Positions 4,195-44,291 of a stretch of 64,000 bases of DNA are shown piece by piece (position 1 is the first letter of the stretch; the number at the start of each line of letters is the position of its first letter). The stretch lies in contig OZ361256.1 of the NCBI GenBank assembly GCA_977018835.1, positions 5,952,001 through 6,016,000 on the forward strand, written 5' to 3'. The notes beneath the pieces were generated by a model. That model was not told the DNA's origin and ran no database searches. It saw nothing but the letters and a program-made list of their open reading frames with translations. The stretch is from Minutocellus sp. GHC0000111 (lineage: Eukaryota). Position numbers and translations under genes: made by a program.

Positions 4195-4399
4195 TATTTG
4201 TAGCCTGACTAGCTACGCTGGAACCAGAATGTAGATCTAGAGTCTACAAATGCCATGGTGTAGTTTAAAAATTGCAAGACAAGCAAGCAAGCACCTGCAA
4301 GTACATCTTTCACATGTAGTCGTAAGTTTGCAAGGAAGTAGAGAGCTAGACTTTACCGGTAGCTAAGTAGGATGAGACTAGAAGAGTCTATGCACTGTC

Positions 4400-7000
4400 T
4401 ACTTGTTGTAGGTTGTTTTGCCAGACAAACATGCCACTGAAGATTCCTTTTGCACTCCCAGCCTTTCAAATGATACTTCTGCTGGTCAGGCATTGCATGG
4501 CATTGTCTTTCTACTGACACGTGTACATACATGTAGATCCTCCACCCACTTGACTGACCATGAGATTGATTGATTGCTGCCCCCTCCGGATGTTGTTCAC
4601 CAGAGTGTTGCAACACCTGCTTGCTTCCCCATGACATGGACTGGCTTTTGAGTGTTGCAACACCTTCTTGCTGTCCTGTCAAACTAAAAAAAGCAAACTG
4701 CCCCGATGTTGTTCTCGTCTTGTAACTTGAGGCCTCTCAGCTGGTGCTGCCTTCTACATGCTCTTCATCGATGTCCTCTCCTTCATCACTGCTGTCCTCT
4801 CCTTCTTCTTCATTGCTTTCTGCTGCCTTGGCCCTGCGTGCTTTTTTGACAATCTCCTCCAAGGCTTTGATGAGCTGTTGTCGACACTTGGCCTTGGCTC
4901 CCTCATTGACCAAGCACATCTCGAAACGAAGCCGACGTGACTCCTTGTCATCTCGCAACGAAAAGCGGACGTGACTGGTTCCTTGTCGTCATCATTCAAC
5001 GGGAACTTGGCCACCAAGGCGGCCTTCAACTCTCCTCATCAGACCTTCGCAGCACCAATGGCTCCCATCGAGGATGCACAGTTGCCGGCACCGTCGGCCA
5101 CGGGGGCTGGAACACGACAAGAGACTTTCCATCCAGCTCAGGACTCTCATCCACTTACTGTAGAGGTAAGGGTAGACTAATGCTAAACCTGATGCTATTG
5201 TCTTTCACAAGTGCACACCCGCCGAGCCACACTTCATCCTCTTCTTCCACTTCTAGAGACAATGATAGCCTGGGAAGGATCTTCGGTCACATTCCGAAGC
5301 TCACTGGACGAGAATCGTTGTCTACGGCACTCATAAAAGTATGTGAAGTATGAGCATACCAAGATCGTTCGCATCTACACATCCCCACCTCGATTCTCAG
5401 ATGCCCAACTCAGCTCTACTTGGCCTGATGAACGTGGCACCGAGCGTTCCTTCCCATGGCATGGATAAAGCAATGGCTGCTACCAATACTTCCAGTTTGA
5501 AACATTATCGCGTACACATCATGTACAGCATCTTGCCCACTCTTCCGCTCATGACAAACGGGGAATGGCGGACAGCAACATGATAGTAACCTGTGGCTGC
5601 ACGTTCCGTGGGCGAGCGACCCGACGCGCTCAATGTTTCCGGAGCAAGAGACTGCACCACTGTCTGAGCTTTCGGTACCGGCGATCGGTTCTCTCCATAA
5701 GCCCTCAACGACCCGGATAGTAATGCTGACAAGGACCAGGACCCTAACCCTATTCATCTTTGGTAAAAACGTGCCTTGTACATAGCTGCATTCAATACAA
5801 AAGGGATGTATCATCTGCAACTCTGGTAAAATTGTAGATCCTATTGAAAAATTGAAGCTATGAACTAATATATTGTCGCAAGCAGACTGAAGTGGTTGCA
5901 CTTGAAACATCTCAGGTCGCCCATTCGGCGCCAATCTCATAAGCCAGACGGGGACGGGCGCCGCTTCAGCAAAGCTTGCTCTTTTACGAACGCCGCTGCT
6001 TCCGATCTCAAACTCTTCGAGGGTGGTCGCTGAGGCATCACTAGCCTATGAAGCAGCAATCGCGATACAGCCTGTCGAGCCATCGATCCGTCACCAATTG
6101 GCTGCTCTCCGACGACGGCCTGCCGTTGAACTACCTTTTCAAATCAATTCATCGCACAGCAACGATCGCAAGGCAAAAGTAGCAGTCCCCATGTTCAAGT
6201 AATTCGTTGTGTTATAATGGCAGCCAACGACAGCAGGGTTGATGTCGGCACGGAGATCAACCTTCCCTTGAAAGCCAACTTGCGCCGCGCACATGAAAGC
6301 AAGCTCTCGAATATTACTAAAGGCCTTGTTTGTCGTCGCAATCAAGAAGGTCTGCTTGGGTAGACTGCAACATCAACCTCACATGCATGGCGTGTCCTCT
6401 GGGGAGCCCTGGCCCAAGGCAGGGTGGAGCACTGATCCTAGCCGAATGGGTTGCGAACCTGTGGCTTCTCAGGTGATCTTGGAGGCCTTGTTTGTCATCC
6501 CAAACAAGGGCTGGCCTGGCTTGGTCAAACTGAGCAACACGTCAAGTACCCCCAACGTCAAGCATGTTGCTGCTGTGTCAATGTTGTTTCCGCCTCTTGG
6601 GTCATCCCATGCTGAATCTTGTGACCTTAGTCCTTTTGTTTGTCGTTGTCAACCAGCCTTACACTTCAACAACAGGATGGTTCCCTCCAAGGAGCAATGT
6701 CGTCTCGGCCTTTCTGCTTGACACCACCAATTGCCATGATTCCGACAGATGGGGGTGGTGGAAGGAGGACAAGGTCAGCAAGAAGAGCACGGTTGGCAGC
6801 CTTCTCGAGGGTATTATTGACCTTTTTGTTGGTGAGGGCATTTTGTTTGTGTGGGGCGCATGGTGGGGATGTTGCTGTGCTCTGCCAGGAAGCAAGCTCT
6901 TCTGAAACTTTCTTTTCTCCGGAACGCAGTGTTCTACTGCATGTGTACATGTAGTTCTAGTCTGGTTTGACACACACTGATGCATTCACTGCTCATTCTT
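4400..7000. pseudogene. Decayed, CpG-eroded repeat/pseudogene-like region of unknown origin
   Basis: No long ORF. Stretches at 4400-4950 and 6350-6950 are rich in TG/CA and poor in CG, with broken protein-like fragments on the minus strand. Adjacent to the LINE. Confidence 0.35.
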
Positions 7001-7059
7001 TGCCGATTGGCTCAGAAAAGCTACATGTAGTCAGCTCAGTATCGGCTGAACGACTCATG

Positions 7060-8500
7060 CTACATCGACGCCAACTTTGGAATGAAGCAGATGGCCCAAC
7101 TTCTCCAACACCAGTATGAAGTACACCTCATCTTCGTCGACCGAATTGTTGTGGAAAATTATGACTCGATGCGGTCCCCAACAGTCTGATTTTGGTGATC
7201 CAGAAGCATATCGCGACGTCAAGATTGATCTACACATCGGGAAGGAGAAAGCCACCTTTGGCTCTACCTGCGGGGTAAAGCAAGGCGACAATCTTGCTCC
7301 CATCCTGTTCATCATGTTTATGAATTGCGTAGCGGAGAGCCTCGATGACTTGTGGGATTTTGAGCAGCCTAACCTTCAGTATGTCCCAGACGAAGAAGAA
7401 GGTAGAGCCCGAGGCCAACTCACGAAGATGCCGGTGAAGACTAAGAAGGGTGAGAGATTTTCTTTTTTCAAGTCTTCCTATGTTGACGACACCGCATTTA
7501 TGTTGTTGAACCGTGAAGATGCCATCAGAGCCACAAAACTTATCGTCTCCCATTTCAAGCGATTCGGCCTGACAGTACACACCGGTAGTAGATCCCTCGG
7601 AGAAGGCTCCAAGATAGAAGCCCTGTACATCCCACCACCTACCTAGGTAGGAAGGAACCGTACACCGAGGAGGAGCTACTGGCAGCAACTGCTGACATTG
7701 TTATCGACGACGACCGATACATATCGTACACCGATGAATTCAAATACCTCGGCAGCCTGCTTGAGAAGCATCTGAACGATATAGTGGACATAAATGCCAG
7801 AATCAAGCAAGCCAAAGGCCAATTCCAAGCGGTGAGTGACAACATCTTCACCAACAAGGATGTACCACTACCCGAGCGACTACGATACTACAATGCCCTC
7901 ACCGTCAATACAGCACTATGGGGATGCGAAAGCTGGGCGCTCAAACCATCACTGATCAAAAAGCTAGAGTCCATGCACCACAACTGCCTCCGTCAAATCG
8001 TAGGGTATAACTTCTACCGAGACGGTAAAGTCACAAATGAAGATATTAGAGCGGAAGCTCTTAGTGCCTACATGTATACGATGGAAACCAATCTAGACCT
8101 AAGGAGATGTAGATGGTTAGAGAAGGTTGCAAACATGGGAGATAACAGATTGCCTAGAAAGTTATTTGGAGCCTTCTGCCATGGAAAATCTAGACGACGC
8201 GGCAAAGCCAAAGCTACAATCCGACATGGATACCGTGACACTCTAGAGAAACTAGGCTTCGGATCTAGAGCAAACGACCTCAGTGAATGGATGCCAGCTG
8301 CCAGAGACCCAGTTCTATGGGCTGAAATAGTGGAGCTCCGACTAGGATTAGTATCCGGCACGTATACAAAGTACAAATTCCGTCAAACGACGATTTCTGA
8401 TTCTATTTTCGGTTGATTTATTCGGACAATTGCTACAGCGGATTTTACATTTAGAGATTAGGGAACTCAAGCCCAATAACCTAGGTGAGTACTCATCATC
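7060..8500 (+). mobile_element. 5'-truncated, disrupted non-LTR retrotransposon (RTE-like reverse transcriptase)
   Basis: RT motifs HLIFVD (partly deleted), ELLWKIM, GVKQGDNLAPILF, YVDD, FKYLGS, RIKQAKGQF, LWGCESW, RRCRWLEKVANMGDNRLPRKL. Frame broken by an 8-bp insertion at ~7641-7648. Short (CAT)n at ~8494-8503. Confidence 0.9.
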
Positions 8501-8928
8501 ATCAGAATGTGCGGTTTCTTCCCATCCGTGGGTGACCTCCCGTCACGTTCTCAAGGTTCAGGCTGAGAGTTTGTCATCAGCTTGAGATGAGATATTTCAT
8601 CACAAACACTTCAATTTGTTGTACGGCAAAGATTAAACATTCTATTAAAGCAAGGAATCACGAACACTTGCCTTACATGTAGTTTTGAAGATACATCCTC
8701 TTTGCATGGAATGCTTAGATTTCCATGTACATGTAGTAGGTGCAATAAACTCCAGTGAGATTTGACCATTTGCCTTTTGTATCGATCACCTAACACCTGG
8801 GTACGAGACCAGATTCTTTTCCGATGTCGTTGCGTTTTTTGTAACATCGCAAAACAAAAATGCAACATTGCTGGAGCTGCTGGCTCAGATTTACATAAAG
8901 TTTGTGTGCGTGCTACACGTAGCATGTG

Positions 8929-10702
8929 TTATATTTCTGCAGAGGACTCTAGATCTACCGTTTCAGCAGTAGTATCCAGATCAACTGAAGTGGTCTCTTT
9001 CTTTACTGTCGTCGATCTCTTTTCCACCTTCTTCTTGTCTGCTTTGGATTTTCGGGAGCTGGTAGACGTAGCAAAAAAGGGAGGCGGCGGGACATTCTTA
9101 TTAGAGCTGATTGGCGGAGCAGCAAAGAAGGGCGGTTTCTTCACCTTTTTCTTTTCAGATGAAATGCGACGCCCGTCCGCATTTGAGTTTGCGCTTTTTG
9201 TCTTGGCCACGACGAGTCCTTTTGAATCCTTGTTATCAAGTTCATTTGCCGCTTCCACGAGCTCAAGCATCAACCCTTCATCGTCAGCAAAACTTTGTTC
9301 ATCTTTTCCGTCATTCAAGCTTTCTTCAAGCCCCGCTTTGAACGAATCGAAGCTTATTTCCTGACCTTCGACTTCCGTGGAATATCCCGAGCATCTCGAA
9401 GCCAGAGGCTCATCGAGAGATTGTTCCACAACCAACGGTTCATTTTGTTGCACATACGTGATGTTGTATTGAATCTCATTTTTGGCTACTGCCGCACCAA
9501 TGGCATCCAAGCCCTCATCATCATCATCGACGCTGAACTCATCAATATCAACAGCCGTTGAAGGCATGTTCCTCGGCTCCTTGCCCAGCTCCAACTCGAT
9601 ACCAGTAGACTCGCCACGCTCACTTCTAACTGCTGGACTACTTCGATTCGACCCAGTAGGTTCCGTCACCAAGTCCTCTGTCGAGGGTATACTACTACTG
9701 CCCATGTCGGCGGATTCATATCGCATGCCTCGCCCAGTGTCGCCAGCTCTTCTTCCTGGCCTGCTGCTGCTTCTTCGTCCTGCCCCGTCGACCATCCCGA
9801 TGGCCGCAATCGTAAACACTGCGCTATCGATAGTAGGTATTTTTGAAGTACCGACAGTGCTTCCGACACCTCCTACTGTGCCGCTTGTACTAATGGTGCT
9901 GACGCTGTTGAGTGTGTTCATAGTCAATTTTGTCTGAACTGTAGAACTCCGTGCCATTCCAGTGCTGTTGCCGTCCTCGATGTCGTCGTCGTCGCCTACG
10001 AGATCTTCATCCTCATAATCGATGTTGTTGGCATTGGCTCTGTGTGCGTTCCTTCCCACTGTCGACTCACACTGACTTCTTGCACTTGTATTGATAGAAG
10101 CAGCAATTCCTTCGGTGAGACCAGTGGCGCCGGTGTATCCGGTGTAATACCCAGTATCCGCCCCCGTGTCCATCGTTCCAAGAGTTCCAAGAGTGTGCGT
10201 GTCAGAAGACAGTGTGTTGTCATCATCGAATGTGGCAGTTTGCTGCGGCGTCTTCTTTCCACCTCCACCAGCCACTCTGGTATAAAGCCCCTGAGCTAAA
10301 TCATCAATACGCCCGAGGTCAAAGTCGCCCTGTTCAATGTCGCCACATTGACCGCCCGGAATGATACAAGTTGTCACAGAGGCGATAGAGGCATCGATTT
10401 TCGAAAGAATACTGCTCATAACGCCGCCTCCTCGTTCTTCTTCTTCCTTTGGTTTCCGTCTGTCGCGCCTCGATGCCGACTTGGTCTTGCTGCCGCTATT
10501 GGCCAAAGGTCGGACCGAGGTGGGTGCTCTGGGAGGTTTACCGCGGCTGCTCCTAGCTTTAGGCGATGATGACGACGACGGGACGCTGGCTGCAATTTCG
10601 TCATCGTCGGACGAACGCATCCGTTCAATCATTCGATCGGTTTCAGAAGGAACGCGACGTGATGCCGAGATGGTAGTGTTGCCAGGCGGATTCATTGTCA
10701 TG
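8929..10702 (-). CDS. Hypothetical low-complexity (S/T/D/K-rich) protein
   Basis: Long uninterrupted ORF (8929-11124). Likely start MTMNPPGN; no recognisable domain. Confidence 0.65.
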
Positions 10703-11170
10703 ACGCAATGCACTTGTATTCTGCTGGACTGGTTATCCGTGGGTCCAGAGAAGAAAAGTGAGGCCGGGATCGAGGAGTAAGTTGGAAGGGCGACTGGAAA
10801 GAAGTACCGGAAATAATGTTGGAGTGCCCACCCAAAATCTAAAAGGAAGGCTCGCGCGCACTTGGAATGGATCAGCACGAGATGTGCGGAATTAAGAGAA
10901 AGGGGCCCGACCGCAATCCCAACCAATGCTTTCTTTGTGGCCGGAGTGCGTGAACTGTTCTTCATTCGCCGCCCTCCAAGGCGCACCTCCTGGTACTGCT
11001 TCACTCTTGTGGCGGGTCCGCTTGCATGGGTCATTGGCATCTTCCGTTGAAAAGGTGACAATGATTTAACCCAGACTAACTTCAGACACCCGGAACGTCT
11101 GGTGAAAAATTGCGCCCCCTCCACCCGTCCTCAACACGATTCGAGCATATTAGATGCAGCCGCAGCCGCA

Positions 11171-11231
11171 GCTCTAAAAAGCAACACCGCACTGCAGTAA
11201 TGCTCTAAAAAGCAACACCGCACTGCAGTAA
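11171..11231. repeat. Perfect 30-bp direct tandem duplication in a divergent promoter
   Basis: GCTCTAAAAAGCAACACCGCACTGCAGTAA at 11171-11200 and 11202-11231. Confidence 0.95.
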
Positions 11232-11346
11232 GCCTCAAATCACAGTAAAACTCCCAGTAAATTGATTCCAAATCGTATGATCGGCGCACCATCGCTAGGA
11301 GCAAAGCATTTGATCAGCTACGAAGCAGCTGCACCGTGTAACAGCC

Positions 11347-13209
11347 ATGAGCTCACAACACGGAGATGCCGTCGATCCAGGCTGCTTCGGTGTGGTGCTC
11401 TCATGCTTCCTGGGCGATGACAACGCTACCACCGCTGGCCAGTCATCACATCAGAACTCAGCCACACTTCCATCTTTCGACGAGACCAATACTTACACTG
11501 CCGAGGCTTCTCTTGCCGGTGACTCCGATTTCGATCGCAGCATGCCTCATTCTTCTACTTCCCCCCTTGCCAACATTGAAGACCTCGAAGGAGATGATGA
11601 CGTTGGCCCATTTGATGAGGAAGAAGAAAGTGCTATTAGCAAACTTGGCGAGGACAGCTTGGTTGCCGGTCTCGAGGAAACTACCCAAAAAGTTATGACT
11701 GGACATAACAAAGACGATGGTAGTAAGAGAGTTCCGGTAGTAGATGCAGTCCAGAACAATTATCAGCAATGCCAGCGAAAGATAACAGCGCCCAAAAAGT
11801 CCAAGTCCAAGAAGACGGCTATGGGCACAGCTTCGTCTCTCATTCGCTCCTTGTCGAGTCGCCGCCAGAGTCGTCGTCAGTCCAACGACAAAAGCATGTC
11901 AGCTGATAGTGTCGACAAAAATGAAGTCGATGAACAAGAAGCAATCATCGACGCTCTGGTCCTGGAACAAGAACAAGAGGAGCCGTTTAGTTCTATGACA
12001 AGTGCAAGATCTCTAGATACGAGAGAAAGGAGTGCGGACAACCGCTTCGTCATTGAGTATGTGTGCTCAGAGGACAATGGCGATATGGACAACGACGACG
12101 GTCTTGAAGCTGGCGGCTATAACGCAAAAGACGAAGGAATTTTCGTCCCAACAGGAAATGTCTCAGCTTTTTCTGATCATACTAGTAGCCCCGATTCTCC
12201 CTTGAACAAAGGCGAGGATGAGGAGAATCTCACAGAAGTCCTTCCGCCTATTGAAGTAGTACTGGATGAATCGGATGGCGAGAGTGTTACAAGTTCCGCA
12301 ATAGTCACAGATGAACGATCGTTCTCGCAGACCAAGGACAAGGGAAGCAGAGGCAAACCAAAGTCAAAAATTGCTGCCAGTCTCAAGCGTTCTGTCGGGA
12401 GCCTTCGTCGGGTTGGTTCTAGAGGGATGCAGCGCACCAGAAGCGAAAAGGTAGGATATTCCACCACCCAAGATCTCAACACGACGCTCCAACTCGACGA
12501 CACATTGCTCACTTCCCCGGATGTTAGTACTGCATCGTACCGGAATAGCATCAGCGATCGTGAATATGATTTGACTGAGATATATGTCGACGGGAAACGC
12601 TGCGATAGCGTCGTTAACGACGATGAAATTTCGGACGATTCCAGCTCTATAGATGAGACATCGTCTGAAAAGTTGCGTCGTCGCGTGGTTGATGTGGAAA
12701 GCCGCGTTCAGAGCCAGATATCGCAAGCAAAGTCCTTTGATTCACAGCAGTCACAGTATGCGCTCGTACATAGGTCTACTTCAGGCCATCGTGGCGTCGT
12801 TCGAAGCAGTGGTGATCACGGCGAGATAGTCCCAAAAAGTGAGGTGATCGTTGATCTGGGTGGACACGATGGCATTATTACTGGAGGTGGATACCTAGAA
12901 ACGTCGGACGAAGTAAAAAAATTCAAAGGCATGCCGCTATTTGTAGAGCAAGGAATCTACGATACCGTCATTCCAGTTCGCTCTGCTGATGAGAAATCTG
13001 TCGTGTTTATTGAAGCCCCTGCGACAGACCCAATCACTTCTGGGTTGGTCACTCCATATGGAAGCGACAGCGACGAAGAGGATGACATCGACGAAAGTTA
13101 CCTCGAGGAAGAGGATGGCGAACCAAGGAAGAAGAGTAGCAAACGTCGCCCTCTCGCCTTTTTGCGAAAGAAACACAGAGACACAAGCTACGAGGCTGAC
13201 TGCAAATAA
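11347..13209 (+). CDS. Hypothetical acidic/disordered protein (620 aa)
   Basis: Long ORF with ATG start and an AT-rich 3' region; no recognisable domain. Confidence 0.7.
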   Translation: MSSQHGDAVDPGCFGVVLSCFLGDDNATTAGQSSHQNSATLPSFDETNTYTAEASLAGDSDFDRSMPHSSTSPLANIEDLEGDDDVGPFDEEEESAISKLGEDSLVAGLEETTQKVMTGHNKDDGSKRVPVVDAVQNNYQQCQRKITAPKKSKSKKTAMGTASSLIRSLSSRRQSRRQSNDKSMSADSVDKNEVDEQEAIIDALVLEQEQEEPFSSMTSARSLDTRERSADNRFVIEYVCSEDNGDMDNDDGLEAGGYNAKDEGIFVPTGNVSAFSDHTSSPDSPLNKGEDEENLTEVLPPIEVVLDESDGESVTSSAIVTDERSFSQTKDKGSRGKPKSKIAASLKRSVGSLRRVGSRGMQRTRSEKVGYSTTQDLNTTLQLDDTLLTSPDVSTASYRNSISDREYDLTEIYVDGKRCDSVVNDDEISDDSSSIDETSSEKLRRRVVDVESRVQSQISQAKSFDSQQSQYALVHRSTSGHRGVVRSSGDHGEIVPKSEVIVDLGGHDGIITGGGYLETSDEVKKFKGMPLFVEQGIYDTVIPVRSADEKSVVFIEAPATDPITSGLVTPYGSDSDEEDDIDESYLEEEDGEPRKKSSKRRPLAFLRKKHRDTSYEADCK

Positions 13210-20615: not shown

Positions 20616-23062
20616 CGTTATCTCTACGCGAGTTGACCTCTTTCCTCCCGCGTACACTGACAAATTGGCTCAGCTACAAGATGGTATCGAACCAATGCCT
20701 TTCGAACTCGTTGAAGGGGTCGTACGGCAGGAACTTCTTGATAGCGCCCCTTTGTCGGATTTGTTCCTTAATTTTGACAAAGAACCTCTTGGGGCTGCCA
20801 GTATTGCACAAGTCCACAAGGCTTCGCTACTCGACGGACGTATTGTCGCGGTGAAGCTGCAGCGTCCCAATGTCGAGCCGAAGTTACTAGGCGATGTAGC
20901 AAATCTGAAACGCATCAGCAAGGCCTTGGCGAAGTCTCTTCCCGTGGATTACTACACGGTGTTCTCAGAGCTTGGAGAGGCACTTATCAATGAACTTGAT
21001 TTCCTTTCAGAGGCAAGCGCAATGAGAAAGATTAGCTACGCGGTTAGTCATTGCAACGATGGAACGCCCGCCGACCCACCAGTAACCATTCCACGTCCCA
21101 TCGGCGAGCTTGTCTCCAAGAGGGTGCTCGTGATGGACTTTGTATCAGGAACTCATCTCAATAGGCTTCAAGAGACAATGAAAGAGCGTGGTATCGAGCC
21201 TGGTTCGCCCGAGGCAAAGCTTGCGGGGAGAAGAATTCTCAACAGCTTGTCCTCGGCTTTCGGTGAGCAGATTCTACTCAGAAGCAATACTTTTGCTTTC
21301 ATTTACTTTATGCAACTCACCCTTATGCATCTCCTACATCAAATGAATGACTTCAATCACCTACCAACTCAGGGCGCATGATATTCGGGGCAGGTTTTAT
21401 CCATGGAGTGAGTTTTTACCTGGCTTATGCTCGCTCGGTTTATCTACATCAACACATTTCACCCTCTCATTTTCTCGCCTTTCGTCTCCTCCTTCTTTCC
21501 ATCGTCTCCAATACCTCTACCTCTACCTCTTTATAGGATCCTCACCCAGTAAGTTTAAAAATATGCTTGTATGCTACAACTGCGATGTGTCCGTTACTTA
21601 TTTCCTATGCCAATATGCCGATAATTTGCTTGGTCGGTCTCACGTATCTTCTGCGTTAATTTATTTCTTCAACTCAACTCACATTCCAGGGCAACATATT
21701 CATCGGAGAAGGCGGCAAGGTTGCATTGATTGATTGCGGTCAGTTCAAGGCCCTACCACGCACTCAAAGAGTGCAGCTGGCAAAACTAATCTTGCAGGTG
21801 GACGAATACCAAAAGGCCGAGTGCGTGGATGATGCAAACGAGGCAAAGGCGAAACTTGCAGGTTTGATTAGAGATTTCGGCGTGAAACTTATGCCCGAAC
21901 ACGAGAACGACGATGATCTAGCGGCTGCCGTTGCCTATTCCTTTTGGGGATTCCGATAGACCTTTGCCAGGTGGATACAGCACATCGGAATTGGACGAGA
22001 AATCCCCAATCAACCTGATTGCCTCGTTTCCCCAAGAATTTGTTTTGCTTGGCAGGGCAACAGTTTTACTCAAGGGTATTGCCAAGCGCCTCGATGTTCC
22101 ATTCTCGCTTGCCGAACGTTGGTCCAAGGGATGCAAATTGACAGTAAGTGCGGCATCTGCGCCGCAGCTACCTCTCTGGGGGAAGGATGTGGTGGATGAT
22201 CGTGACTCCGGGGGAACATCATCAGCCTCGAGTAGATCTAGCATGAAGCAATCTCAACAAGGAGGTGGAAGAGCCGCCGACAAGGACAATAAGATCCAAT
22301 TTCGCCAAGTTGCGCGTTTCTTTAAGGCCTGGGGCAAGGGCAAGGCACGTCGCTTCATCGAACGTGTGGTGAAGAAATTGCCAGAAGGCCTGCGGGCCAA
22401 AGTCTTGGAAGCGGAGTTGCGACGGATGGAGAGGGAGGATGCTGCGAAGTAGATCTAGCTAGAGTTTAGCTAGAAGCTATTATTATTATTAATCATTATG
22501 TATGTCTATGCTACATATATATATAGCTAGAGTCAGATTCATGCTCCGGAATCCGGACGACCTACCTGCTGCATCGAGGTTGAGTCGGTGAACTTGGTGG
22601 CGCGCGCGCGCCGGCGCGCGGCGACTTACACTACCAATGACCCATAAATTGGAGAACATCCGAAGCAGCACAAGAAGACATTCGAAATCGGAAGATTTGC
22701 TGGCGTGCGCGCTTTCAGCTCCGTTGAGCCGTTGAGCGCGAGCGTTGGCCGACCTTCCCTCAAAGCAACACTAAGTACTGCAATACTACGTAGTACCTCC
22801 CTTGCGCTTGTATCGTCGATGAAGAGAAAATTACTTACGTCGATTCGGCCGAACCGCTTGAATTTCATCGGTCGGCTCATCTTCTCTTCAATCTGCTTGC
22901 TTCCAAGCGAACACCTGAATCGAATCGGCCGGATCGAATCGAATCATCGGATCGAAGCAGTGAAAAGAAATTCTCTCCTGATTTTAGGATTGCTTCTTTG
23001 GTTTTGACTCTGCTCTTCATCAGTCACTACTCAATAATCACTCATCGCGAACACTCAACATT

Positions 23063-26000
23063 ATGCCACCCTATGGCGAATACAACGGCTATGCTGGTCC
23101 GGCTGGTGGTGGGTATCCACCTCAATATCCTCCGCAGGCAGCGCCCCCCGCCGGATATGCCTATGCGGCGCCTCAGTACGGCATGATGGCTCCACAGCCC
23201 ATGCCAGTCATGCCAGTAATGGCGGCGCCCGCACCTCCTCCTCCGCAGCCAGCTCCTGTCGCATACGCTGTAGCCCCACCCGCCGCTACAATCCCCGTCG
23301 TCTACCAGCAGCAGAAGAAATCCAAGGCGGGAGGTCTCTTTGGCGGTCTCCGAAACAAGTCGGCTGCTGCCTACATTCCAACGCCTGCCCCGGTAGTCGC
23401 CACTGCTCCTTCCCCAGCACCAACCGCAGCAGCTCGTGGCGCAAGTGATCTTCTCAAGTCGACGGAGAACGGCATGGAATCCATCTACGCGTCGACTCCC
23501 GACCAGATCCGCCGGGCGGCCGACTACAACGAGAAGGAATCGCAGCGCCTGCTCACTTCCCTCATGTCGACCAGCAGGGGCAAGAAGGAGATGCAGCAGA
23601 TCACCTCCAAGGCCTACGCCCACGCCAACGAGGCCAAGCGCCTGCAGCGCAAGGCCGAGCTGCTCGATGCCTAGCTCCGACTGCAGAAGGAGGAACGGGA
23701 GCACGACGACCTGGAGCAGCGCCGTCGGATGCGCCAAAGTAGGAACCCGTACGCCGGTTGTGGCGTCGCACCGGGCATCTGTGCCGGCGGTGACGTGGAG
23801 ATGCGCCAGCAGGACAACGGCGATGGCGGTGACTGCAACATGGCCCTTTGCGGAGCCTTTGGTGCTGGCGCTGGCATTGGCGATCAAGACAGCGTCCTCC
23901 TCCACGATGACGGCGACAACGACGTCCGCGGCCAACACGCCAGCCATTATGATGCCAACTCCATCATCCACCACAGACCGGCGTCCATCCAGGTCCGGAC
24001 TTCAGCTCCAACGTACGATATCAAGGAGTACAAGGATGCTGCACCCAGCGACGACAATGGCGGTGAATCCAGCACTCGAGGCCGGTCCAAGAATCGTGGA
24101 GGGCGCGTCATGGGCTTCCTTCGAAGCCGGAGCAAGTCGAGAGATGCATCATCCAAAAAGAGCATCGGCGGCGGAGACGACGACCAGACGAATGGCGAGT
24201 ACACCCATGCTAGCGATGCTGGCTTCTCTGGGGATGGTGCGAATCTTCGCAACCCCGACATTGTCCACAATATTCACAAGGTGGAGGCTGAGATTACCAA
24301 TATCCTTGATCACGAGGACGGCGACAATGCCAATAATTATGATAATGACGACGACGCCGACTCGGCAGGGTATGCCGTTGCCCCATCCAGCCTCAAGGTA
24401 ATCTCCAAGGTCGATGCCGTCCGTCCTCCCAAGGAGCAGCCCAGGAAGATGCGCCCGGGAGATGTCGTCCTCGACCTTTCCGCCATGCTCATCGACGAGG
24501 AGCGCGATCGTGCCGCCGGTAGGAAGCTACCTGGAGAGTCGTCCTTGTCCAAATCCGTCGATATGAAGAAGCGAAGCACCTCGTTCCGAAAGACCATTTC
24601 CCGCTTGACTGGAAAGGGTGGCAAGAGCAAGACGGCTCAAGGCTTCATCGGTACGGACGACAGTGATGACGAGGATCAAATCGAATTCGGCAGTTCACAC
24701 CAGCAAAAGGGCACTACCTCGCCACCTTCTAAGTTGCTGGAGGTTCCCAGTACTTCCAGTAGAGACTGTACAACGGCGAAGCAGATGAAGGGCCAGCAGA
24801 GCGACAAGGATAGGATCGATGCTCTGGAATGGAGAAACCCAGCGCATATGGCCAGGGGTTGGGCCGATGACATGTCTCTTCCGGCCATGTCCCCTCGTCA
24901 TCGCTCGGGATTGGCCTCTCAGTCCTTCAACGGATCTATGGCATCGTGCACCGTCAAGGCCAAATTCGCTCAGGATAGGAAGCTCGTGAATAGCGAGGAG
25001 ATTGCCACAGCCGTGAGGAATGGCAAACTCAGACGTACCGAGCCCAAGTCCAAGCCATCGACCTTGGATCGTCAAAGGTCGAGGAAAGACCAGACGCACG
25101 ACGAGCTTGATGCTGATGCAATCAAGGTGTCCGAGTCCTTCCATGGTTTCGTCGACCAACGTCGGTCGGATATGATGGAGCAGAAGAAGCAGAAGGAACT
25201 ATCTCAGATGAAGGCGTTCTACGATGCTTACGGTGAAGAGGCCTACCGAGAGGTATACGGACCTTATGAACAGCAATTGGGCTATGGATTGTTTTACAAT
25301 GAGCCGGGCCCGCTTGATCAAGATGGCGCAGAGCAATTCAATGGAAACCTACAGGAAGGATCCACGAGCATGGTGTTTGGCAGTCAGTCCAAGAAGAATT
25401 CCCGAAGACAAGCCCGTCACAAGAGGTCGGAGTACTGTCCGATCGGCAGCGAGAAAGATGAAGCGCTCGCTAAGCAGAAAGAGGGACAAGAAGCAGAGCC
25501 AAAACAGTGAATTGCAGAATTCCACATCGTATCATTCCACTGAGCACCATCAGTCTCACCAGGACAACAAGTCAATGCATTCTCGATCTATGGCTTCAAG
25601 GTCGAGGGGAGTTGATTCCAGTACGAAGCAGAGCAGTGCCAATTGAAACAGTGATGGTGCAGCATTCCACTTTGTCCCATCCTCCAATGGACACGCCGGA
25701 TGGTCAAGGACAAGATCAAGAGCAGCAGTGGAACGGACAACCCCAAGCCTTTGTGGAGCCGATCGACACAACAGATGATGCACCGTACTATACCGACACT
25801 CCTTCGCCGATGAATAGCCATCAGCCGAGCTATTTTGATCACAATCAAGCTCAGCAACAGCAGTGGGGAGATGGCATCAACGAATATGGAACTTCGATTC
25901 CTTCACCTACTGCTCCAGCTCAACATCAACCTATCAGAGTTACGGAAAGTCGGCTCGCCCGCCAGAGATCTTCCAATCGGAACAACAAGCAGTCCGTCGA

Positions 26001-31300: not shown

Positions 31301-31556
31301 TTCCTCCCCTTTCAACTCGGACACGGACGGTGCAAATAATCAATTTGGATACACTCACGAGTATGCCACCGGGTCGCAAAAGAGTGGAGGATTTACCTCC
31401 ATGGTGGACAGTGAAGATGAGGAAAGCTCACCAGCCAAGCCAATGCGCCTGCCCAATCATCGTCGTGCCGGCCGAGCCTCGACGAGGCTCCGGTCCATCT
31501 TGCAGGGAGGTGCTGCGTCGGCGAAGGCCGAGAGTGCCTCTTTGCTGCACAATTAG
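28338..31556 (+). CDS. Large disordered hypothetical protein with a small helical 'YKGRE..L' module
   Basis: Long ORF of about 1070 aa; motif ERVNVILDSYKGREDRLIQSL at ~30610-30675. Confidence 0.75.
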   Translation: MARLAFRRPPLSPASSPPSPPSAKGGSGAAARSGTDDITRTDATDNTNTGSNSAGEEKIEKTKMKATTTSSGAADDSLSLEGDVDDANSTTSIEDYDLGFLDDMACGVYRPIRKLWGVQAIAGLIGEQCSSSSANNQSTDEAAAAADDENENEANKAVGTSKKSSGKANVNSSLLQDSTSVVDCDQSRRSVTSSSYSEVSGDVETTTSINTSTNTSANNTSASIDIDVSADLDEIAQRQADLLYNELAQTRQEVLLQKQRSMKKNKQGGGGIFKMGLLGRGGGNGGASKVNANVNATSTSTTPKTRRGLSLRKNSNNNHNKKSKSKSNKSKLNASADRPVLAVVNDSGIDLVNVSLQRKKKDSDDAKAVDTSGSTAGTTTGRSATYSATLRPEGMDTSIDLVVKTGPAAAATGTTTTCSNAHKAATATAAAVTATTSNNKQGQADNAKNAGGGATAVGSAQAKLDAIATDEALASVFFGPAAQAATAQAQYLVKAMQEDARRYYQEAVAAEKGGDVKGAQKWYGLASMAQEREAQAMGMDMDRAEAEQSFMACGLEVQMAPSTLTDGRSVGSTTAFDDEDEDDDDGGTFVSITSNDYTHQDGAGAVDNKGTGIRSDDLGLGGITSFGGGEASTGPAHTPAHVRPAATTTTTTCTTTARGAKATSTSFTVEDPTFVLEMSSIDEMMASFSTDAKPEASQKQEEKPAVSQMDKNKKKPTQPTAIVEDEPPLERSEFVTPVFNLLVRAYGAEHFSGDDRWERVNVILDSYKGREDRLIQSLLTKAAERETKQKKEQKQLQEVGVTGNKSGAETNITGTPSDSFQLDVSSIAPEAAATSSTPSEAPQKPDLSFRDLAARPIDDDDSVFGDLEQNAVERVDNAGPSACSPPTAVNALALGNYALSPPPTKSAYASSRGYSPQGKATAPKTPSTFGVNSDSDCSPAPNTSMQSNDSSSAAFDFGGFASSNPFKRLDFADHADDTNAVSAGNPRSSSPFNSDTDGANNQFGYTHEYATGSQKSGGFTSMVDSEDEESSPAKPMRLPNHRRAGRASTRLRSILQGGAASAKAESASLLHN

Positions 31557-31895
31557 ATCTAGATCTACAAAATGATATCATATCTTTATTTTTCTCTTAT
31601 AGTAATAGAGTTACCGGTACATATCTAGCTAGTTATCGGTAGACGTCTACTAGTACCGGTAGCTAGCTACGGTAGAACTGCAGATGCGTGGCACCTTTGA
31701 TCTCCTGAGCAGCTTCAAAAACAGCACGATTTTCTGTTGCGGAAAGCCAGCCGGCCAGCTGAGCCATCCGCCATGACTCACCAAAAATCCAAAAATTCAG
31801 CTGAGGCAAGATTTCACTTCGAAGGAACACACACCTCAACCAACCACAATATCTAAAACTCAATAAGAGTAGCAATGGTTCGATATTGCTGCATG

Positions 31896-37702: not shown

Positions 37703-37740
37703 TACCTAGGTAGGCCTAGGCCTACCTAGGTACCTAGGTA
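37703..37740. repeat. Cluster of nested TACCTAGGTA/TAGGCCTA palindromes
   Basis: TACCTAGGTAGGCCTAGGCCTACCTAGGTACCTAGGTA. Confidence 0.9.
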
Positions 37741-40352: not shown

Positions 40353-40610
40353 ATCTATCAAGTGTGATCAATTGCGTCGTTAGCAATTGTAGCAAATTGT
40401 CCTTGAATGCCGTGCAATCGATCGATGCACGTCCGGGGATGGGAGATACGAGATGAGAGGTCGGTCGGGAGATGTTGACGAGTTGCGACGCTACGTACGT
40501 ACACTTTACGTACATACGCACGATACGTAGAGTCTACGTATCTGATGACCCCGCGCGCGGAGGCCAGGCATCGACGAGGGGCCTAAATAACAAATCAGGG
40601 ATCAGCCGTA

Positions 40611-43600
40611 CCTTTCGGTTTCAGAGGATTTGTAGAGGGTATACCAATAACCCCTAAAAAAGGTCATTCTTGCACCCATTTCTCATTTCCCACCACACGT
40701 GTTTTGTTAGTCGATGTTCTCTTCGGGAGGAACGCAAATGCTCCTCAACTCGTGGACATCTCTACTGGACCTGCTCATTCAGTAGGTTGCCACCGACCAG
40801 TAGTATCCACTGAATTCGCAGGTCCAGTAGATTCTGGCAGGAACACATGTATTTTTTGGTCCCCCGCACACCCTCGCCGACCGACCGCACAACCAACCCG
40901 CAAATTTTGTGACGATGACGACGACCAACCAGACCACGCCCAAAAAATACAAACGCAGCAGAACTTCGTTCTCAGGGAGCAAGAGAGGCAACACCAAGGC
41001 ATCCAGGAAGGCGGCAAAGGCGGCAGCTGAGCCGAAAACACCATCGCCGAGCGCAAACACGTCGAAGAAGCGGCCACGGTCAAATTCGCCCCCGCCAAAC
41101 CGTCACCGTCGTCGGCGAAGAAGAAGAGGACGGCCCCTCCTCCTATCCCCATGGCCTTTCTCCTTGCAGCAGATGTCATTCGAAGGGCTGGTAAGGATCT
41201 GTGGTGGAGAGTAACCCCCGATTCCTGCGCGGCAAAGACGACATTTGTGTTGGTTCTCGCGGCAGAAATGGGAAGACGTCCTCCCCCCCTGCTTTCATCG
41301 AGGCCGACTTGTTGCGTTCCAAGTCCGTCGGTGGAGGAAAGTATGAGCTACAGTACAACGAGGAAAAATGGAAGGATATGCAGCAACATCTCAAGGAGCA
41401 TTGTAGTTTGAAGTTGCACTTGTCGACGTGTCGGCCGAGAGGGAAGACAAGACGCAGGGCGCTTTGTGTTTGTGCTCACAGGTTGCGTAAAAAGAAGGAG
41501 GACAACCACCACCCGAAATTCTCTGGACCGGAGGGACAGAAGGTGCACGAGAAAAGAAATCCCGATGAAGTTCTGTTCTCTGGGCGCTCCTCGACTGTCT
41601 TAGCTACTAAGCTAGGTGAGAGGTTGTCAGCTCACAGAAAGGAGGTGCAGTCAGCGCATTGCGAAGCAAGAGCAAAATCACTAGTCGACGAGGCCAAGAA
41701 ACTGGGTTGGATGCCAGCAAGTCTCCTCAGCATGCTGAAGGGAACTGGTGATGCTTCCGCCACTGAAGCAGCTGCAGCCTCCCCCAATGATGAAGGTTTA
41801 GGAGGAGCCGATACTTCCGTTGTCTGTGCCACCTCCAGTGACATTGATGAACAGGTAAAGGTCGCTCTCGGCCTCGACTTTGTTGTTCGGATGGCCAACG
41901 ACGATGACATGCTCCGTCCTCCTCGTCCCAATGCAACCGTCACCGAACCAACACCAATCAGAAAAGAAAAGCAGGCGAATGAAAGAATGCGGTTCAGCGC
42001 CGTGGCTCTCGCGGATTGGTGGGGATGCGGCGACCCAACAACTCGCACGCATGAAGACCGGCAACAAATTGCAACTGCCGCGTGTCGGCAAGTTGCGTGC
42101 GATCACGGTTATGCCAAGTCAACCGGTGGTTCTCAGCTTTACAAGTGGAGAGACCAGCTCTACAAAAGCCTTACTGATGGCATCAGCAATCCCATCGGCA
42201 GAAAGGAGGTTCGTGGAAGGAAGGCATGCACGGACATGATCGAGGAGAAGGAGCCAGGATGTCTCCGCGAGCTGTGTCGGCATGCTGCTCGGATGAAGGG
42301 TGCGATGGCAACCTTTAAGGAGCTAGCTGACTGTGTGAGCGCAAAATCAGCTACTCCAGATGAAGATAGGCTGACAATTTGTCTCCATCGTCTTCAGCTT
42401 TTTCGCTGGTGGAAAAAGCAAGGCGGTAAGGAGAAGTCGTCGATCGAGAAGCCGAGGCTCACCCCCGAACATTGCAGGAAGCGACTTGATTGGATCGAAA
42501 AGTGGGAGGACATTACGACCGATCCCAACATTCCTGTAGCGTGTCTTGATGAAAAGTGATTTTACACTACTACTCGGCGACGAAAGATCAAGATGTTGCC
42601 ACTTTCTGACGAAGAACTAAGTAGTCCGAACCTCGCGTCTATCCATGCTTCCGAGGCAAGCCCGAAAATTCGATCCAGAAGACACCCTGTCAAAGTTATG
42701 CATCTTGGAGTTGTTGGCCGACCAATGAAGGATGAAACCAAAGACGTTGATTTCAATGGGCGCATCATGATCAAGAGAGTCGCCAGGGAGCAGAAGGTGG
42801 AAAAGCTTACGCGTAATCAGAATTTCTCTCCAGATGCTAAGGTCAACGATGCGCTAAAAAATGACAAAGATTGGCGATTGGCGCGAAATTTACGACGAGA
42901 ATGCTGACATGACCGCCGGCCATCTTTGCGACCACATTGCCGAAATCTACGGCCTTTCTGAGTTTGTTACAGAGCGATTGGAACTTCAATACGAGGACTA
43001 TAAATCCGACGGTCAGGCAAAAAGTCGCAAGCATGCCGCTGTTGGCTACAATCAAAAGATCTCGAGTCTCAAGCGACACACTCCTGATAGCAATGGAGAG
43101 AAGGTGAAGGTTGAGATCGACGACCTTGAGCTCGGGGTGCGGTATCAACGGGGCGATAAGGTTACCAAGGACTGTAGCTGCGACTCCAAATGGATGTTGG
43201 AGACTATGAATGAGGTCGGGAAGGCGATTCGAGACGCACATCATTGGGTGAAGTGGGATCCACAAAATATTCAGGAGTCTGATGTTACATGTCTTATGAT
43301 GGACAATGCCGGTGGTCATGGGTCCAATGAAGCAGTTGAGAAGTACACCGAGGACCTCAAAAACAAATATAAGATTGAGATAATCCAGCAGGTTCCTCGG
43401 TCGCCCGAGACAAATGTTCTTGATCTCGGCATCTGGATGTCTTTGCAGTCGGCCGTCGAAAAGGAGCATCGCGGTCAGAAGAATGATGCGAATGCTCTTG
43501 ACAAGACTGTGATGAAAGTATGGGCCAATGTCGCATCAAAAGAGGCCTTTCTCAATGTATTTGGAAAACTTCCAGTGATATATAACAACATCAAGAGAAG

Positions 43601-44104
43601 TCGTGGCGGTAACAATCTTGTGGAGACCAGACGGGGAAAGGCTGTTCTCTCGCAAAAATTGCCGAGGAAGAAGCTGAAGAGGATGGTGAACCACTCTGGC
43701 CAATTGATGCTCCCGGCGAAGATGATGACATTGAGGACGACATAGATGAAAATGATGAAGACTATGGAGTCATTGATTTGCTATAACTTATCATAGCATG
43801 TCCATTTCTATTCATTACATTTTGATTTGGTGCTTCCAAAAATGTGTATTTTTTCCCGGGGTGAGGAATGCAAATGTCGAAAAAAATCATCACATAATGT
43901 ACATTTATTGGTTCTGGTGCACAATATCTCTCGACTATATGTAGAAGTTGGTGACCATAACTTGGTTCTTGCCCCGACTTCCATCTTGGCCGTCATTTAT
44001 TCCTCGGAGTTAGAAAAAGTGAGAGCTTGGATTTTTGGTCTGGTGTGGTCGTGTTTCTAATACGTCATCATCACGTCACTTTCAAATCCTCTGAACTCGA
44101 AAGG
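40611..44104 (+). mobile_element. Full-length Tc1/mariner-superfamily DD39D DNA transposon (3494 bp) with an inactivated transposase
   Basis: 22-bp TIRs CCTTTCGGTTTCAGAGGATTTG (40611-40632) and CAAATCCTCTGAACTCGAAAGG (44083-44104), 2 mismatches. TA on both sides (40609-40610, 44105-44106). Confidence 0.95.
40915..43790 (+). pseudogene. DD39D transposase pseudogene
   Basis: LDEK*F (W codon read as TGA at 42557-42559), KVMHLGVVGRP, MMDNAGGH...QVPRSPETNVLDLGIW with exactly 39 residues between the 2nd and 3rd Asp, GGNN. Frameshifts near 41100-41200, 42860 and 43710. Confidence 0.9.
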
Positions 44105-44291
44105 TACTTCTAGGTCCTACGTAGTAGGCAAGGAGAAAGTCATCACCACAACATCCTCAAGAGAACTAGCCAGGAGTAGCCCACTAGCCTAGCTAGACTA
44201 GTACGTGAAGTAGTCGGACGAGGATCAAAGGTACCGCTTGGCCATTTGACGTGGCCATTTGACTTACGATCGTAGTCTCCCCCGAGCAAAC

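Follow-up and report, generated by a model that had tools for sequence, protein, structure and literature searches.

An 8-bp gain at a TA step of a decayed LINE copy, a candidate excision scar of an abundant DD39D mariner family

Introduction

Tc1/mariner-type elements leave small excision footprints, in which the duplicated TA target encloses a few terminal nucleotides of the departed element. In plants, DD39D elements leave 1-4 terminal nucleotides between the two TAs (PMC9632168, PMC1925063), and the Triticeae sites presented in the latter include a single TA that was used repeatedly and an insertion beside an old footprint. For Sleeping Beauty and mariner, the cut is placed 3 nt inside the element, staggered overhangs remain on the flanks, and the break is sealed by end joining (PMC7827188). 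The word taCATGta has been cited as a rare Tc1 footprint, in an article that dismisses that origin for an abundant Phytophthora motif (PMC3520976). A literature search that reached few subscription papers returned no account of TACCTAGGTA, or of such scars, in diatoms.

Here we describe a 64-kb stretch of DNA from a likely diatom, termed the window, in which a LINE copy is interrupted by the palindromic 10-mer TACCTAGGTA at position 7640. The insert is identical to a duplicated TA together with the three outermost nucleotides at either end of a DD39D element that lies, flanked by TA, in the same window.

Results

An 8-bp gain at a TA interrupts a LINE copy

The features described below are collected in Table 1. 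Full-length relatives of the host LINE carry RVT_1 plus an N-terminal endonuclease (PF03372/PF14529 on P0004-P0006). The 3' end of the window copy lies near 8501, after a (CAT)n run, and loose ends are found behind 8501/8504 in the public runs X17, X1 and X3. The ORF translation of frame 7086-7646 terminates inside TACCTAGGTA with IPPPT followed by a stop, and reading resumes at 7649 as RKEPYTEE...FKYLGS. In a tblastn alignment with the relative P0001 (91% identical), residue 430 falls at window position 7640 and residue 431 at 7649, leaving exactly 8 extra bases, as a sequence-only reading of this DNA had claimed when it described the frame as broken by the 10-mer.

Table 1. Coordinates of the features in the 64-kb window
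Feature	Position	Strand	Basis or remark
Non-LTR retrotransposon copy, 5'-truncated, decayed (RT C-terminal half and C-terminal domain)	7000..8501 (approximate)	+	Pfam RVT_1; tblastn of P0001 from 7000
TA-CATG-TA, third TA-site gain of the same LINE copy	7022..7029	.	Protein evidence only
TA-CCTAGG-TA word TACCTAGGTA	7640..7649	.	8-bp gain at TA that shifts the frame and brings in a stop; candidate excision scar (TA duplication enclosing 3+3 nt of element ends)
TA-CATG-TA, in-frame 6-bp gain at TA, same LINE copy	8069..8076	.	6 left out in 4/4 runs
38-bp chain TA-CCTAGG-TA-GGCC-TA-GGCC-TA-CCTAGG-TA-CCTAGG-TA, intergenic	37703..37740	.	Contains the remaining three copies of TACCTAGGTA
Left TA target duplication and left TIR	40609..40632	+	
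Tc1/mariner-type element, DD39D triad, 22-bp TIRs beginning CCT, TA on both sides	40611..44104	+	TIR search; D-D-D spacing
Right TIR and right TA target duplication	44083..44106	-	

That reading had also expected other LINE copies to show a plain TA. Contigs of four public runs were aligned on 4200-9500, and copies with the 8 bases left out at 7640 were present in all four; a situation in which every copy carries the 10-mer did not occur. The 8-less type accounts for a depth of 1932/2203 over the site in X17, 14.4/171.7 in X1, 31.5/58.4 in X3 and 22.3/28.2 in X4. The filled allele of the window itself is displayed in none of the contigs of these four runs. Over 7640, X17 has three contigs, all of types other than that of the window (1932+271=2203), and bubble-popping in a repeat would give the same picture. 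At the protein level, all 21 close relatives spanning the site are free of the insertion, 20 reading IPPPRKE and one IPPRRKE; they are the 21 that cover the site among 27 listed relatives, comprising 12/12 of the P0001 cluster and 15/56 of the P0002 cluster. Because these relatives were predicted as open proteins and are thereby selected for the absence of frameshifts, the DNA comparison outweighs the protein comparison. Altogether, TACCTAGGTA at 7640 is confirmed as an 8-bp gain at a TA relative to other copies, with the TA duplicated around the extra bases and a single TA in the empty site.

Two features of the site had been overlooked in the sequence-only reading. The empty site is CC-TA-GG, its flanking letters being identical to the outer letters of the insert, and a diverged LINE copy in X17 and X1 contigs carries TACCGGTA, a 6-bp CCGG insert, at the same TA. 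A loose end in X3 has a similar CCGG insert at this TA, together with TAGATCTA at a TA near 7626. A second insert at one TA points to a possible hot spot or a target preference for CC-TA-GG.

The same LINE copy has further gains of this kind. At 8069 the relatives read EALSAYTMETN and the window EALSAYMYTMETN; at 7022 they read GSKLISSVSAERL and the window GSEKLHVVSSVSAERL. In total, three TA-site gains are found among about 80-85 TA steps of this copy, TACCTAGGTA once and TACATGTA twice. Metagenome contigs provided four loci of a sister subfamily (L001-L004), which has no TA at the position of 7640 and provides no test of that site. Between the intact L001 and L002, 2742 bp align without a gap, and comparison of the dead L003 with L001 revealed six indel sites, three of which are TA-palindrome gains. 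L004, apparently the same locus as L003, has one additional TACATGTA. Gains at TA in these two records of dead LINE sequence (L003 740-1090, L004 3448-3626) are CATG four times, GGCC once and TG once.

As a separate observation, the alignment of the diverged copy in X17 and X1 can be read at window 7752-7753 as letters put in, TA and AGT, which jointly give TACAGTA. This would be a 5-bp scar resembling the Sleeping Beauty type.

A TA-flanked DD39D element with CCT and AGG ends

The element is a 3494-bp unit that starts as TA+CCTTTCGG... at 40609 and finishes as ...CGAAAGG+TA at 44106, with two mismatches between its TIRs. Its CCT beginning at 40611, its AGG end at 44104, the TA on both sides and the spacing of 39 residues between the second and third aspartates of the window copy all agree with what had been read from the sequence. 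In 59 homologues this spacing is 39 in 34 and 38 in seven, and the pattern was not found in 18. The three catalytic positions D444, D693 and D733 (P0043 numbering) are invariant in 31 aligned homologues. The transposase is about 850-960 aa long and has a long stretch between the first two aspartates. Intact relatives exist (P0043, P0044); the window copy is disrupted by a stop (42557-42559) and, near 42869, by a duplication of 7 bp that other copies lack.

Domain searches gave HTH_Tnp_Tc3_2 in 8/31 homologues (best E 7.8e-6), DDE_3 on 16% of the members of the Atlas neighbours, a SETMAR match at an E of 0.91 only, and no Pfam hit in P0043. No search returned a named plant transposase among the relatives of the window transposase. 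The nearest Atlas clusters are commonest in Bacillariophyta, on few recorded members, and one homologue is named Chaetoceros tenuissimus. No transposase relatives were found in viral contigs. Matches to the TIR pattern (two in genome_contigs and three in viral_contigs) are attributed to chance, as they have no likeness to the window beyond the pattern.

Depth and cluster size both point to an abundant family. Single contigs over the element reach about 10,200-12,300 in X15, where flanking contigs have 109-121, and 20,800-24,000 in X17, where they have 184-211, a ratio of ~100 that is no copy number as such. The 98%-identical cluster of P0050 has 275 members, and the 15 listed sit on contigs of 13 different lengths. 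The family probably has copies on the order of 100. A joint between 40495 and 44137 that skips the element occurs at half depth in X15 and X17; it has 23 letters on its short side, under the 31-letter bar for a bridge, with unknown letters between and ~150 bp of flank also absent. This joint hints at an element-less haplotype.

Private tandem duplications of 2-7 bp, absent in other copies, span 40759-44021 of the window copy; they would reflect a mutation process biased towards insertions or, alternatively, errors of assembly. The 5' region of the element also has a 23-bp inverted repeat at window 40761-40831.

Copies of the family are also marked by changes at TA. Tyrosines common to P0043 and P0044 are His or Cys in 113/263 cells, compared to at most 13% for a change of any other residue; the tally covers 18 listed family members (P0050, P0102-P0115, P0117-P0119) plus the window copy 41195-43640, and its cells are not independent events. 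A single tyrosine column can hold His in one copy and Cys in another. TA-to-TG or TA-to-CA changes make up 18/42 of the replacement changes in the window element copy vs 2/17 in the LINE copy (Fisher p 0.03). A matching TpA hypermutation has been described in Bigelowiella natans (10.64898/2026.01.13.699255), in a source where the word diatom does not occur; our literature search returned nothing on TpA hypermutation in diatoms.

TA-bounded palindromes recur across the window

The 10-mer belongs to a class of TA-bounded palindromes that is in excess in the window. TA-N4-TA palindromes number 40 (4.2 expected), TA-N6-TA palindromes 12 (1.1 expected) and TA-N2-TA palindromes 41 (14.3 expected); non-palindromic TA-N4-TA forms have a smaller excess (125 seen, 71.3 expected). 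The commonest 8-mer of the type is TACATGTA, with 13 copies vs 0.42 expected. For TACCTAGGTA, four copies are seen, compared to none in 100 shuffles and 0.01 expected under an order-3 Markov model. The four copies represent two independent loci, three of them being packed into the chain at 37703.

In this chain, TA separates five palindromic units (CCTAGG three times, GGCC twice). Only one haplotype carries the chain; the alternative haplotype reads CA where the TA would stand and lacks the units, and it is seen at half depth in X15, X17 and X1, with 72-88 letters on the short side. One X17 contig matches the window up to 37740, runs through 34 other letters and then enters the left end of a DD39D element, and may represent another locus with scars beside an element.

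Twenty words were built from the ends of the DD39D element. The symmetric forms 1+1 (14 copies), 2+2 (five) and 3+3 (four) are present, and the words 3+2, 4+3 and 4+4 are absent from the window. The symmetric-only spectrum fits fixed staggers, and the 2+2 word may derive from another family. An origin of the 10-mer in two one-sided events, TA-CC-TA and then TA-GG-TA, was ruled out: TACCTA occurs 13 times vs 6.9 expected, with the 10-mers accounting for 8 of these.

With ORFs of at least 300 aa as a rough proxy, distinct from gene annotation, 12/35 listed palindromes with four inner nucleotides and 0/9 listed ones with six lie inside long ORFs. The 8-mers inside such ORFs are at window 957, 12180, 29585, 30290, 46954, 46963, 48576 and 61544. 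Scars of 6 bp preserve the frame and may have lengthened host proteins by two residues. TA-bounded palindromes form further chains, with GATC, CCGG, CTAG, GC and CG units, at 31554-31672, 22450-22475, 40492-40540 and 44105-44205; several such chains directly follow stop codons or flank the DD39D element on both sides.

Origin of the insert at 7640

The insert is a gain at a TA, it duplicates that TA, and its inner letters match the first and last three bases of the DD39D element. We consider it likely, with good confidence, to be the excision scar of a transposon of some family, because TACCTAGGTA belongs to the class of TA-bounded palindromes described above and the same LINE copy has two TACATGTA gains. 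That the departed element came from the abundant CCT...AGG-ended DD39D family, or was a non-autonomous derivative with the same ends, is held with less assurance, as the reading that we favour at somewhat better than even chances. The LINE copy would already have been in place when 8 bases, CCTAGGTA, were gained at its TA. An element would have entered at this TA and duplicated it, and its transposase would later have excised it with a 3-nt stagger, leaving CCT 3' overhangs on both flanks. Since two CCT overhangs cannot pair, end joining may have retained both, and filling of the gaps would then yield TA-CCT-AGG-TA. In a unicellular alga any such repair would be passed on by inheritance. Families that differ in their ends and cut with a 2-nt stagger could similarly have produced the commoner TACATGTA, TAGATCTA, TACTAGTA and TACCGGTA.

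The sequence-only reading had gone further and tied a palindrome class to this specific transposon family. The footprint as a class is well supported. The tie to the DD39D family, made through a match of just three letters on each side, is plausible, given the agreement of the ends and the abundance of the family, but unproven, and no site with element, scar and empty alleles was found. Among the matches listed in the run contigs, which drop variants, there is no element-carrying allele at 7640 or 37703, and no scar was read in these contigs at a site that the element is known to have left. A scar origin is favoured by the threefold recurrence of TACCTAGGTA at 37703 despite different flanks and by the lack of an insert on the TA-less haplotype. 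Against an origin from this family in particular, published DD39D footprints are heterogeneous, and here the 3+3 form appears four times.

The alternative that survives best dispenses with a transposon. A CCTAGG site would have gained CCTA and TAGG from its own flanks, either through slippage that duplicated each of them or through templated break repair, to become CCTA-CCTAGG-TAGG. The outer letters of the insert are indeed those of its CC and GG flanks, tandem duplications outnumber any other indel type listed for the element (11 of the 12 extra pieces listed are tandem copies of 2-7 bp and the twelfth is a C-run expansion, beside 409 further entries), other LINE copies contain 4-bp tandem duplications (AATT, GCAA, CTAG), and polymerase theta is known to leave templated inserts at breaks (PMC4490562). 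Moreover, two CC...GG inserts at one CC-TA-GG site are what copying of the flanks would lead one to expect, and the scar model requires a target preference there. However, two symmetric events are needed, and neither the 8-bp piece nor the CCGG insert at the same TA is a single tandem copy. The outer flanks of the 37703 chain are CG and AG, not CC and GG, yet the same word occurs there. Where empty sites are known, as for CATG at 8069 and 7022 and for the gains in L003 and L004, the inner letters were not copied from the flanks; CATG, GGCC and GATC inserts are all unlike theirs. Both inner halves equal the flanks in one of the 44 listed palindromes, namely the one at 7640. We regard insertion templated by the flanks as unlikely.

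The scar could also come from a different TA-targeting family with CCT ends, such as another mariner, a pogo-type element or a MITE, of which the window shows no example. At least five inner words (CATG, GATC, CTAG, CCGG and GGCC) match no element in the window, so the scar model requires families that are not seen here, and related DD39D subfamilies are at hand (P0043-P0046, 71-93% identity). On the other side, a TIR-pair search of the 64-kb window gave no convincing second TA-flanked family, and the one clear element has exactly the CCT and AGG ends and is very abundant. The probability of such a separate source is low, a shade below that of flank-templated insertion.

A chance word or an assembly error would fit a filled allele displayed in no run contig and several window LINE letters missing from all X17 and X1 contigs, but it is very improbable given the count of TACCTAGGTA (4 vs 0.01 expected), the palindromic core enclosed by an exact TA duplication, the gains of like class seen in the independent records L003 and L004, and the tendency of contigs to drop minor repeat variants.

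Discussion

Excision-type scars, as the favoured reading of the 7640 insert, are of an ordinary kind, and they are likely to be unusually common in this genome. A broader picture, which we put forward tentatively and rate slightly under even odds, is that transposons move by cut-and-paste so often in this likely diatom, and the breaks are mended so uniformly, that each resident family writes one fixed TA palindrome, the 3+3 word TACCTAGGTA for DD39D and 2+2 words for the others. The scars would then constitute a family-by-family ledger of excisions and a main source of small insertions, and the host would counter by mutating TA to CA or TG in multicopy elements.

A single footprint in a dead LINE is unremarkable, and its value is that of a natural control. 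Intact relatives supply the empty site, so the abundant TA-bounded palindromes here are insertions and not binding motifs that arose by point mutation, which bears on similar words interpreted as promoter motifs in other stramenopiles (PMC3520976). If the link to the family holds, scar counts would date excisions and measure them per family, and the cut geometry of an algal DD39D transposase would be obtainable without an assay.

The closest described systems are the plant DD39D mariner-like elements and Stowaway MITEs, including Osmar5, Ppmar2 and the Triticeae beta-amylase intron (PMC9632168, PMC1925063, PMC3660474). They share with the present case the TA duplication, the terminal nucleotides retained between the TAs and the DD39D triad, and the Triticeae sites resemble it further in the repeated use of one TA and in an insertion next to an old footprint (PMC1925063). 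The published plant scars are variable and often asymmetric, whereas here the form is fixed and symmetric at 3+3. In addition, the Triticeae Stowaway footprints derive from CTC ends, compared to the CCT ends, the likely diatom host and the transposase of about 850-960 aa in our case.

The taCATGta footprint of Caenorhabditis elegans Tc1 (PMC3520976; repair routes in PMC4490562) has the same logic of TA, two ends and TA with both non-pairing overhangs retained, and it is the same 8-mer as the commonest such word in the window. It differs in being 2+2 instead of 3+3; the worm scar is called rare and its germ cells use polymerase theta, whereas the words described here are frequent and inherited. 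Sleeping Beauty and mariner (PMC7827188) provide the cut geometry, in which the first nick falls 3 nt within the element, the donor flanks keep 3' overhangs of 3 nt and end joining follows. Their footprint is a single 3-nt overhang; at 7640 both overhangs would be retained, giving 6 nt.

Promoter motif-1 of Phytophthora, TACATGTA, is likewise an abundant TA-bounded palindrome in stramenopile non-coding DNA, and PMC3520976 considers and dismisses a footprint origin for it. By contrast, dead LINE copies show TACATGTA here to be 6 bp gained at a TA; the analysis concerns these copies. To the known systems the present locus adds a 3+3 form for which the empty site is demonstrated and an abundant family has matching ends.
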